A stretch of DNA of 64,000 bases from Escherichia coli O157:H7. GTDB lineage: Bacteria > Pseudomonadota > Gammaproteobacteria > Enterobacterales > Enterobacteriaceae. Within the stretch, counting starts at the first letter, position 1; the number at the start of each line of letters is the position of its first letter. Both the position numbers and the translations under genes were made by a program. Under the pieces are notes generated by a model. It was not told where the DNA came from and did no database searches. It saw only the letters and a program-made list of their open reading frames with translations. Location of the stretch: NCBI RefSeq assembly GCF_013167455.1, contig NZ_CP038328.1. One strand, written 5' to 3'. Below, in pieces: positions 3,021 through 64,000 of the stretch.

Positions 3021-3099
3021 ATTTCTGAACGCTGCACTTTTTTACCTATCTCTTAAATAGTCATTTTCAATACAACTTTTTCTTTTTCATCACAGCCTT

Positions 3100-62081: not shown

Positions 62082-62522
62082 TTACGGATTCACAAACGTC
62101 GCTTTCACCCGCGACGAGCGTTTGAAATAGGGGACGATCAATGCGGTTGCCAACAAAGTAAACAGCAACTGGCGAACGGCTATGCCATCTTCCACGGGTG
62201 AAAAAGCGAACGCTTTTACCGCCAGCAATACGGAAATAAGCAGCCAGATAATATAGTGTTTAGGAACACAACGCCGACGTTTAAAGAAAGCGATGGTCAA
62301 CCACAGTGTGTAATACCACATGGCGATAGCGGTAATAAAAGAAACGCCCCATAAGATTTGTGTCGTCAGTGCTTGTGCGCCGAGCGTTTGAAATGTTTGC
62401 GGAGAAGATAACGCAGCGGTATACAGCAACAACGCCAGCGTCGTACTTAACAGAGCGACTAAAAGCCAGGCCAACGGGCCAAGCAACCAGCCTCCAATAC
62501 GTTGTGGCGTTGTGGTGGTCAT
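62082..62522 (-). CDS. ydgK: Inner membrane protein YdgK (146 aa)
   Basis: Start at second Met (MTTTTPQRIGGW); hydrophobic. Confidence 0.65.
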   Translation of the reverse strand: MTTTTPQRIGGWLLGPLAWLLVALLSTTLALLLYTAALSSPQTFQTLGAQALTTQILWGVSFITAIAMWYYTLWLTIAFFKRRRCVPKHYIIWLLISVLLAVKAFAFSPVEDGIAVRQLLFTLLATALIVPYFKRSSRVKATFVNP

Positions 62523-62607
62523 AGGTTCTCCAGAATAGCGACGCAAACAGGCAAATCTAATTTTAGGGGCGTTATTATAAGGCTTTTATAACCGATCGCT
62601 ACTTTCT

Positions 62608-62823
62608 TTATTGAACATAGTGCCAGACGGACTTCGGTACCTGGCCGAGGTCAAACAAACGCCCGCCAGAAACCAGCTCTGCGCGACGGTGATCGGCAGC
62701 ACGATACATATTGATCAGTTCCTGATCGTCCGTCAGGGTGTAATTAAGATGGTCGTAGAGTTTTTCCAGACTTTCGAGTGAACTGATTTTGCGAAATTTT
62801 AATAAGTAGTCCTGAACAGTCAT
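62608..62823 (-). CDS. cnu: OriC-binding nucleoid-associated protein Cnu (YdgT), Hha paralogue
   Basis: 71 aa; [50 protein letters not shown]. Confidence 0.9.
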
Positions 62824-63095
62824 AAAAGGTCCATAAAATAATTAATACCAAAGGGGTAGGTATTATTAGTGATGATAAAATTTCACCAAAAGTGAACGCT
62901 TGTGTTATTACAATAATAAGAATGCGCTGATGGCAAATATTCAGGGATGAAAAACTGCTATGAAAAGAGTAACGCGCTTTACTATCCCTGACAATCACCA
63001 ACAACACCGAACAAGATAATAAATTCCTGGTTTAATATCCGACAAGTGAAAACATGCACCCTGACGGGCAGCATGTCGCTCTACAAGCGCAGGGC

Positions 63096-63221
63096 TTACT
63101 TGTGTTGTACCGTAGTACTCTGTTCAGGTGGCTGATAGTTGTCAATGTGACTCGCCACGCCAAGAAGAATGACTGAAACGACAAGAACGATCCAACCTGT
63201 TAATTCAATAAGACGATTCAT
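63096..63221 (-). CDS. blr: Small membrane protein Blr (41 aa)
   Basis: Hand translation of minus strand: MNRLIELTGWIVLVVSVILLGVASHIDNYQPPEQSTTVQHK; not in ORF track. Confidence 0.7.
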   Translation of the reverse strand: MNRLIELTGWIVLVVSVILLGVASHIDNYQPPEQSTTVQHK

Positions 63222-63463
63222 TACAACTCACATCTCTGTTGATTGATCCATTAACTTCAGGGGGTAAATGTTACTTAGCAATAATAGCTCCAGCAAGATT
63301 TTTACTGAGGTTTTTGCGATATTTAGCTTTTGTCGTTGGAAAAATCGCTATTTTTTTGACTTAAGTTAAACAACATCCCTTATTGCTGGCAGGTTATTAA
63401 ACTGTTGAGCGAGGGTAAAGGATAGTGTCAAATAGCCATCATACTTCAATGAGAGGCAATGAC

Positions 63464-64000
63464 ATGAGCGACAACATCCGTGTTGGGTTGATTGGGTATG
63501 GTTATGCGAGCAAAACCTTCCATGCGCCCCTGATTGCGGGCACACCCGGGCTGGAACTGGCGGTAATCTCCAGCAGTGATGAAACAAAAGTAAAAGCCGA
63601 CTGGCCAACGGTTACGGTTGTCTCTGAGCCGAAGCATCTGTTTAACGATCCCAACATAGACCTGATTGTCATTCCTACACCCAACGATACCCATTTCCCG
63701 TTAGCCAAAGCAGCGCTTGAGGCGGGTAAACATGTGGTCGTTGATAAACCCTTTACCGTGACACTGTCACAAGCGCGAGAGCTGGATGCGCTGGCAAAAA
63801 GCCTGGGGCGTGTTCTGTCTGTATTCCATAACCGTCGTTGGGATAGCGATTTCTTGACGCTAAAAGGTTTGCTCGCGGAAGGCGTGCTGGGTGAAGTTGC
63901 TTACTTTGAGTCTCATTTTGACCGCTTCCGTCCGCAGGTGCGCGATCGTTGGCGTGAACAGGGCGGCCCAGGCAGCGGTATCTGGTACGATTTAGCACCA
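63464..64000 (+). CDS. ydgJ: Gfo/Idh/MocA-family oxidoreductase YdgJ, N-terminal part (3' end beyond window)
   Basis: ATG 63464 (MSDNIRVGLIGYGYASKTFHAPLI); Rossmann GxGxxS motif; open to window end. Confidence 0.8.
   Translation, partial: MSDNIRVGLIGYGYASKTFHAPLIAGTPGLELAVISSSDETKVKADWPTVTVVSEPKHLFNDPNIDLIVIPTPNDTHFPLAKAALEAGKHVVVDKPFTVTLSQARELDALAKSLGRVLSVFHNRRWDSDFLTLKGLLAEGVLGEVAYFESHFDRFRPQVRDRWREQGGPGSGIWYDLAP

Follow-up and report, generated by a model that had tools for sequence, protein, structure and literature searches.

A 41-codon reading frame between cnu and ydgJ of Escherichia coli O157:H7 is the known small membrane protein gene blr

The window analyzed in this work is a stretch of 64,000 nucleotides from Escherichia coli O157:H7 (contig NZ_CP038328.1), in which a short minus-strand reading frame occupies the intergenic region between two longer genes. 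The coding elements of the locus are the following:

62608..62823, minus strand: cnu (ydgT), downstream of blr and on the same strand
63096..63221, minus strand: blr coding sequence, 41 codons, with an ATG start and a TAA stop at 63096..63098
from 63464, plus strand: start of ydgJ, divergent from blr

Read on the minus strand, positions 63096-63221 translate as MNRLIELTGWIVLVVSVILLGVASHIDNYQPPEQSTTVQHK followed by a stop (ATG AAT CGT ... CAC AAG TAA). This is exactly the peptide quoted in an earlier sequence-only reading of the window, which had placed a 41-codon gene in this interval, between cnu and ydgJ, and had named it as the gene for the small inner-membrane protein Blr. The RefSeq annotation agrees on all of these points. 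In the O157:H7 strain PV15-279 the identical interval is annotated as blr, with the product name "division septum protein Blr" (WP_001296096.1), and its neighbours are the divergent ydgJ upstream and ydgT (= cnu), ydgK and rsxABC downstream. A 601-nt query spanning blr shows 100% identity to O157:H7 chromosomes and matches 5424 of the 5426 complete E. coli genomes searched; among the matches listed, blr is annotated under the match wherever the gene is present. One of the matches to the blr region sits on a record classed as a plasmid, not a chromosome.

The same reading had described the gene as missed by automated 60-aa cut-offs. This stands for the mechanical ORF list, in which the default cut-off of 60 aa skips blr and a cut-off of 20 aa recovers it, but not for the genome annotation, which lists the gene. 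At the lower cut-off the surrounding 2.5 kb yield 35 ORFs of at least 20 aa, several of them of about 40 aa and in other frames. Since ORFs of similar length abound around blr, length by itself provides no evidence for a gene. The mechanical list also gives a longer product for ydgK (62082..62546, minus strand), with 154 aa from a TTG codon against 146 aa (441 nt) in RefSeq, a discrepancy that is an ordinary difference in the choice of start codon.

Profile comparisons assign the peptide to a single family. It scores 91.3 bits against the NCBIfam equivalog model NF033231 (small_Blr; cut-off 40, E = 1.8e-26, profile positions 1-40 of 40) and 87.9 bits against Pfam PF24673 (Blr_divisome; gathering threshold 27, model positions 1-41 of 41), and these Blr models are the only ones that match it above cut-off. 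Among 5.8 billion clustered proteins the search recovered 97 homologues, nearly all of them named Blr, from Escherichia, Shigella, Salmonella, Citrobacter, Enterobacter, Lelliottia, Leclercia and Intestinirhabdus. Aligning 30 members leaves 13 columns invariant (R3, E6, L7, G9, S16, L20, A23, H25, D27, N28, Y29, Q30 and P31), all of which are present in the O157 protein, and positions 34-40 are variable. The identity of the 41-codon frame as blr, a known and already annotated gene, is thus essentially certain.

When compared with the annotated K-12 protein (b4409, named for beta-lactam resistance or as division septum protein), which has the same ydgJ/cnu locus and the same length of 41 aa, O157 Blr is identical at 39 of 41 residues, including the whole of the transmembrane helix and the SHIDNYQPPE motif that follows it; the two proteins differ at residues 36-37, which are A36 S37 in K-12 and T36 T37 in O157. 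At the nucleotide level, 2252 of the 5400 matching E. coli genomes carry the ORF at an identity of at least 99%, ST131 and avian strains among them, and the remaining 3148 fall in the 95-99% band, where the K-12 allele lies at 98.4%. T36 T37 is therefore a common E. coli allele, located within the variable tail. Further afield, the 41-residue core of the Salmonella, Citrobacter, Enterobacter and Lelliottia proteins is 71-88% identical to that of O157, with the invariant motif and the same synteny, although these proteins are annotated at lengths of 41-53 aa and differ in their start site.

Curated models and annotation leave the question of whether the locus itself behaves as a coding sequence, and this was addressed by aligning the whole ydgJ-cnu intergenic region from 10 sequences spanning six or more genera. 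Besides the O157 window, the set comprises loci from Salmonella, C. koseri, C. farmeri, Enterobacter, Lelliottia, E. fergusonii, Enterobacter sp. ENT03, a metagenome contig and K-12-like E. coli; it excludes Intestinirhabdus P0042, whose protein has no contig on record. The gene order add-ydgJ / blr-cnu-ydgK-rsxA is kept in 8 of the 9 loci from other genomes, and the order of blr, ydgJ and cnu is the same in Salmonella, Citrobacter, Enterobacter, Lelliottia and E. fergusonii. In Enterobacter sp. ENT03 (Logan SRR20722477, 1761-3138) a glycosyl hydrolase family 1 gene follows blr instead of cnu-ydgK-rsxA.

Within this alignment the blr ORF stands out as an alignable island, flanked by intergenic DNA that barely aligns between genera. 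Its 126 nt contain no gaps across the 10 orthologues, and the numbers of variable columns at first, second and third codon positions are 19, 12 and 37 of 41. Relative to the O157 sequence, pN ranges from 0.09 to 0.20 and pS from 0.66 to 0.86, the latter being saturated, and dN/dS has a median of 0.09 for those pairs in which it could be computed. The blr frame is also the only one of the six without a stop in any of the ten sequences. These results bear on the alternative that the ORF arose by chance and that the conserved element is non-coding, for instance a regulatory RNA or a leader of cnu. Such a reading could draw on the many ORFs of like length in the same 2.5 kb and on the weak Shine-Dalgarno pairing ahead of the blr ATG (-2.9 kcal/mol in O157 and -4.7 in the K-12 type). 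It is contradicted by the match of the peptide to curated protein models and by the lack of any Rfam match at or near the gathering score, and the codon-position pattern, the low dN/dS and the lack of indels effectively refute it, leaving it a vanishingly small probability. The pattern of substitution instead identifies blr as a real translated gene under purifying selection, conserved across genera of Enterobacteriaceae, a check that the earlier reading had proposed, and codon-level conservation cleanly separates it from the equally long chance ORFs nearby.

The Rfam scan covered positions 62500-64000 on both strands at E <= 1 and found no known RNA family; its single match, to a nematode snoRNA, reached 19.6 bits against a gathering score of 45 bits and is attributed to chance. 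Two plus-strand ORFs that overlap blr (63054..63176 and 63169..63246) were considered as real features and rejected, as they are interrupted by 1-4 stops in the orthologues.

The point at which translation begins varies more than the protein core. At the place of the E. coli blr ATG, Escherichia, Salmonella and C. koseri share this codon; Enterobacter, Lelliottia, C. farmeri, ENT03 and the metagenome contig have ATT, ATC or TTC there. Nine of the 10 loci have an ATG four codons further upstream, and wherever the aligned codon is ATT, ATC or TTC this ATG is the only possible canonical start. In the O157 window this upstream ATG belongs to a short frame of its own:

63228..63251, minus strand: upstream frame MDQSTEM followed by a stop (ATG GAT CAA TCA ACA GAG ATG TGA), in frame with blr

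This 7-codon upstream ORF (uORF) is separated from the blr ATG by 6 nt, the two sense codons GTT GTA. Its internal in-frame ATG (63231..63233) corresponds to the start codon of Enterobacter, Lelliottia and C. farmeri, and in O157 that ATG (63233..63231 in the direction of reading) is directly followed by the TGA at 63230..63228, so that the sequence reads ATG TGA GTT GTA ATG. At 63228..63230, where O157 has TGA, most E. coli have TGG, among them four further strains in the alignment. Three codons ahead of the blr start, K-12 thus has TGG and an open upstream frame, whereas O157 has TGA and a closed one; K-12-type strains and MRY15-117, the latter with the same Blr protein as O157, carry TGG GCT in place of TGA GTT. 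An exact copy of the 71-nt O157 haplotype is carried by 397 of 5397 complete E. coli genomes. In E. fergusonii three in-frame stops precede the blr ATG.

This arrangement decides between the annotated product and an N-terminally longer one, which would have 45 aa if begun at the ATG four codons upstream and about 52 aa if begun at the ATG that opens MD. A longer product is suggested by orthologues annotated at 51 aa in Salmonella and Citrobacter and at 45-53 aa in some Enterobacter, by the presence of the upstream ATG in 9 of 10 orthologues, where it is the sole start option if the E. coli ATG is replaced by TTC, ATT or ATC, and by a stronger Shine-Dalgarno-like GGAG or AAGGA that precedes the upstream ATG in three loci. 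Yet the O157 upstream ATG runs straight into TGA, which makes a longer form impossible there, and in-frame stops lie upstream in E. fergusonii too. We accordingly consider the longer product very improbable for this gene. Because of the upstream TGA, the annotated ATG is the only start that yields the whole conserved protein in O157, and the same holds for E. fergusonii with its in-frame stops; use of this ATG is obligatory in both. The O157 haplotype is in this respect a natural experiment, which shows that the 41-aa form suffices to be maintained and is the one kept by selection in Escherichia. A longer form of Blr may nonetheless be made in K-12-type E. coli, Salmonella and Enterobacter.

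Some of the existing annotation may need revision on the same grounds. The annotated 41-aa Blr of an Enterobacter genome starts at ATT and that of C. farmeri at ATC (positions 1501-1503 of the locus in both cases), and an in-frame ATG lies 12 nt upstream (1489). These starts seem to have been fitted to the E. coli model, and the true products are probably of 45 aa, beginning MTSI in Enterobacter and MSSV in C. farmeri. We also considered, as an unlikely proposition, that the start has shifted within Enterobacteriaceae and that the uORF created by the TGG-to-TGA change in O157 could alter the translation of Blr through coupling or reinitiation, and hence its dosage. The heterogeneity of start sites and the O157 upstream stop are minor curiosities, fit for an annotation note.

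The intergenic region also contains candidate signals for transcription on either side of the gene:

63268..63296, minus strand: candidate sigma-70-type promoter, proposed from cross-genus conservation only
63296..63291, minus strand: candidate -35 element TTGCTG, matching 3 of 6 consensus positions
63273..63268, minus strand: candidate -10 element TAACAT, separated from the -35 by a 17-nt spacer
63047..63077, minus strand: terminator-like hairpin, ACAUGCUGCCCGUCAGGGUGCAUGU followed by UUUUCAC, 19 nt past the stop codon

Upstream of blr, the intergenic alignment shows conservation between genera only in the blocks CTTGC and GTAACAT, which lie 17 nt apart; at the place of the -10 element E. fergusonii has TAATAT and Enterobacter sp. 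ENT03 has TACTAT. These two blocks would be the weak -35 and -10 of a blr promoter, which would give a 5′ UTR of about 40 nt. A consensus promoter scan found nothing upstream of blr above shuffle expectation (3 sites found, 2.6 expected), and the candidate goes uncalled in that scan because its -35 matches the consensus at just 3 of 6 positions. Past the stop codon, the stem-loop of the hairpin (63077..63051) is followed by UUUU; the pattern scan found 2 such sites against 0.3 expected in shuffles, and the minimum free energy fold of 63040-63100 on the minus strand has -21.7 kcal/mol (z = -2.08). Since the intergenic alignment shows no conservation of the hairpin from one genus to another, it and its UUUU tract are best described as a putative intrinsic terminator.

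Presence and loss of the gene were surveyed in complete E. coli genomes. The blr ORF is found in 5400 of 5426, with 26 genomes lacking a match and a further 10 in which the match covers less than 80% of the ORF in one place. Disruption of the frame in close relatives was named by the sequence-only reading as evidence that would count against the gene; disruption or loss is confined to about 0.7% of complete E. coli genomes and does not refute it. Two cases illustrate how the gene is lost. In CAVP776 (NZ_CM176338.1, locus 1159-2575) an IS3-family insertion after about codon 17 splits blr, both halves of which RefSeq marks as pseudogene fragments, showing that blr can be lost in a clinical isolate. 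In a K-12 MC1000 assembly (NZ_CM170063.1), about 390 bp are cleanly deleted between ydgJ and cnu, and blr is absent. The deletion spans the equivalent of about 63033..63422, taking with it the candidate promoter, blr and the putative terminator, and its junction (locus 3070-3085) joins TTGACACTA to AACCAGG and shows microhomology of 1-2 nt; the deletion may have been engineered, may have arisen spontaneously or may be an assembly artefact. The gene is thus dispensable, and its losses fit a non-essential accessory division factor.

The hydropathy of the peptide outlines a simple architecture. Kyte-Doolittle means are 2.3-2.7 over residues 4-26, with the maximum of 2.7 at residues 9-23, and in 15-residue windows hydropathy is below zero from residue 19 onward, leaving a hydrophilic tail. 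This profile delimits an N-terminus of six residues, one transmembrane helix (approximately L7-S24) and a hydrophilic tail of 17 residues. The start of the tail, from S24 through H-I-D-N-Y-Q-P-P to E33, is the most conserved segment of Blr, and residues 34-41 are variable. We infer a Nin-Cout topology, with a cytoplasmic N-terminus and a periplasmic tail. The S2P protease RseP is reported to cleave Blr, handled in tagged form as a membrane substrate, in all four assays of one study, which makes it a class I substrate, and the substrates of RseP are generally Nin-Cout, in agreement with the topology proposed here. We further infer that the SHIDNYQPPE motif and a helix face of small residues (G9, S16 and G21) form an interaction surface. 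No PDB sequence matched a profile of the Blr alignment at E <= 1, so that no solved structure includes a relative of Blr.

Septal localisation of Blr has been reported with GFP-Blr. The protein was described in 2000 in a report whose title refers to a "41-residue membrane protein" (Wong et al. 2000, Mol Microbiol 37:364, as cited in PMC12350097 and PMC10470546), and the title of a later report names it as a component of the E. coli division machinery (Karimova, Davi and Ladant 2012, J Bacteriol 194:5576, cited in the same two articles), a designation that later reviews also use. According to this literature, Blr is recruited to the division septum, where it associates with late divisome membrane proteins, and helps to maintain divisome function during envelope stress; cells that lack it are more susceptible to some peptidoglycan-synthesis inhibitors, the beta-lactam phenotype. 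The plasmid pDSW207-blr is likewise cited.

Applied to the O157 gene, this background suggests a mechanism in which translation from the ATG at 63221 would yield a 41-residue bitopic inner-membrane protein with one helix and a periplasmic tail. The protein would be recruited to the septum, would join the late divisome membrane proteins and would sustain the divisome under envelope stress, with the helix and the juxtamembrane motif as its interaction surface. It is likely, but not proven, that Blr is in this sense a specific divisome stabiliser acting via its transmembrane helix and juxtamembrane motif.

A less specific role has to be weighed against this one, namely that Blr is a small membrane protein of general function, with envelope phenotypes that arise indirectly, for example through the membrane or RseP-linked quality control, and with two-hybrid partners that are artefacts. 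In favour of this role are the efficient cleavage of Blr by RseP, which other unrelated small membrane proteins share, and a gene that is dispensable and occasionally lost. The strictly conserved periplasmic juxtamembrane motif, on the other hand, suggests a specific partner over a generic effect, and localisation of the GFP fusion to the septum speaks in the same direction. As to the partners themselves, PMC7648144 doubts their implausibly high number in the bacterial two-hybrid assay (BACTH), in which 7 of 12 divisome proteins scored as Blr partners and false positives may be included, and reports little or no interaction between Blr and DrpB; the title of Karimova et al. (2012) and the later reviews nevertheless place Blr in the division machinery. 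We regard the indirect role as unlikely, while granting it some weight.

Our overall reading of the locus, which we hold with high confidence, is that the frame is the known gene blr, which is translated from the ATG at 63221 and encodes a 41-residue bitopic inner-membrane protein; its membrane location and divisome role are those given in the literature. With a description in 2000, a link to the divisome in 2012, curated NCBIfam and Pfam models and an annotation in nearly all E. coli RefSeq genomes, blr is not novel, and the present result carries little weight as a discovery, its minor by-products being notes on annotation quality. It serves better as a positive control, in which a reader of sequence recovers a real small gene hidden by a 60-codon filter. 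The E. coli inner-membrane proteins YmgF, MgrB, AcrZ and CydX, which modulate larger membrane complexes and bear no sequence relationship to Blr, resemble it in having fewer than 75 aa and one transmembrane helix and in binding larger membrane proteins, and they are just as easily skipped by ORF-length cut-offs.
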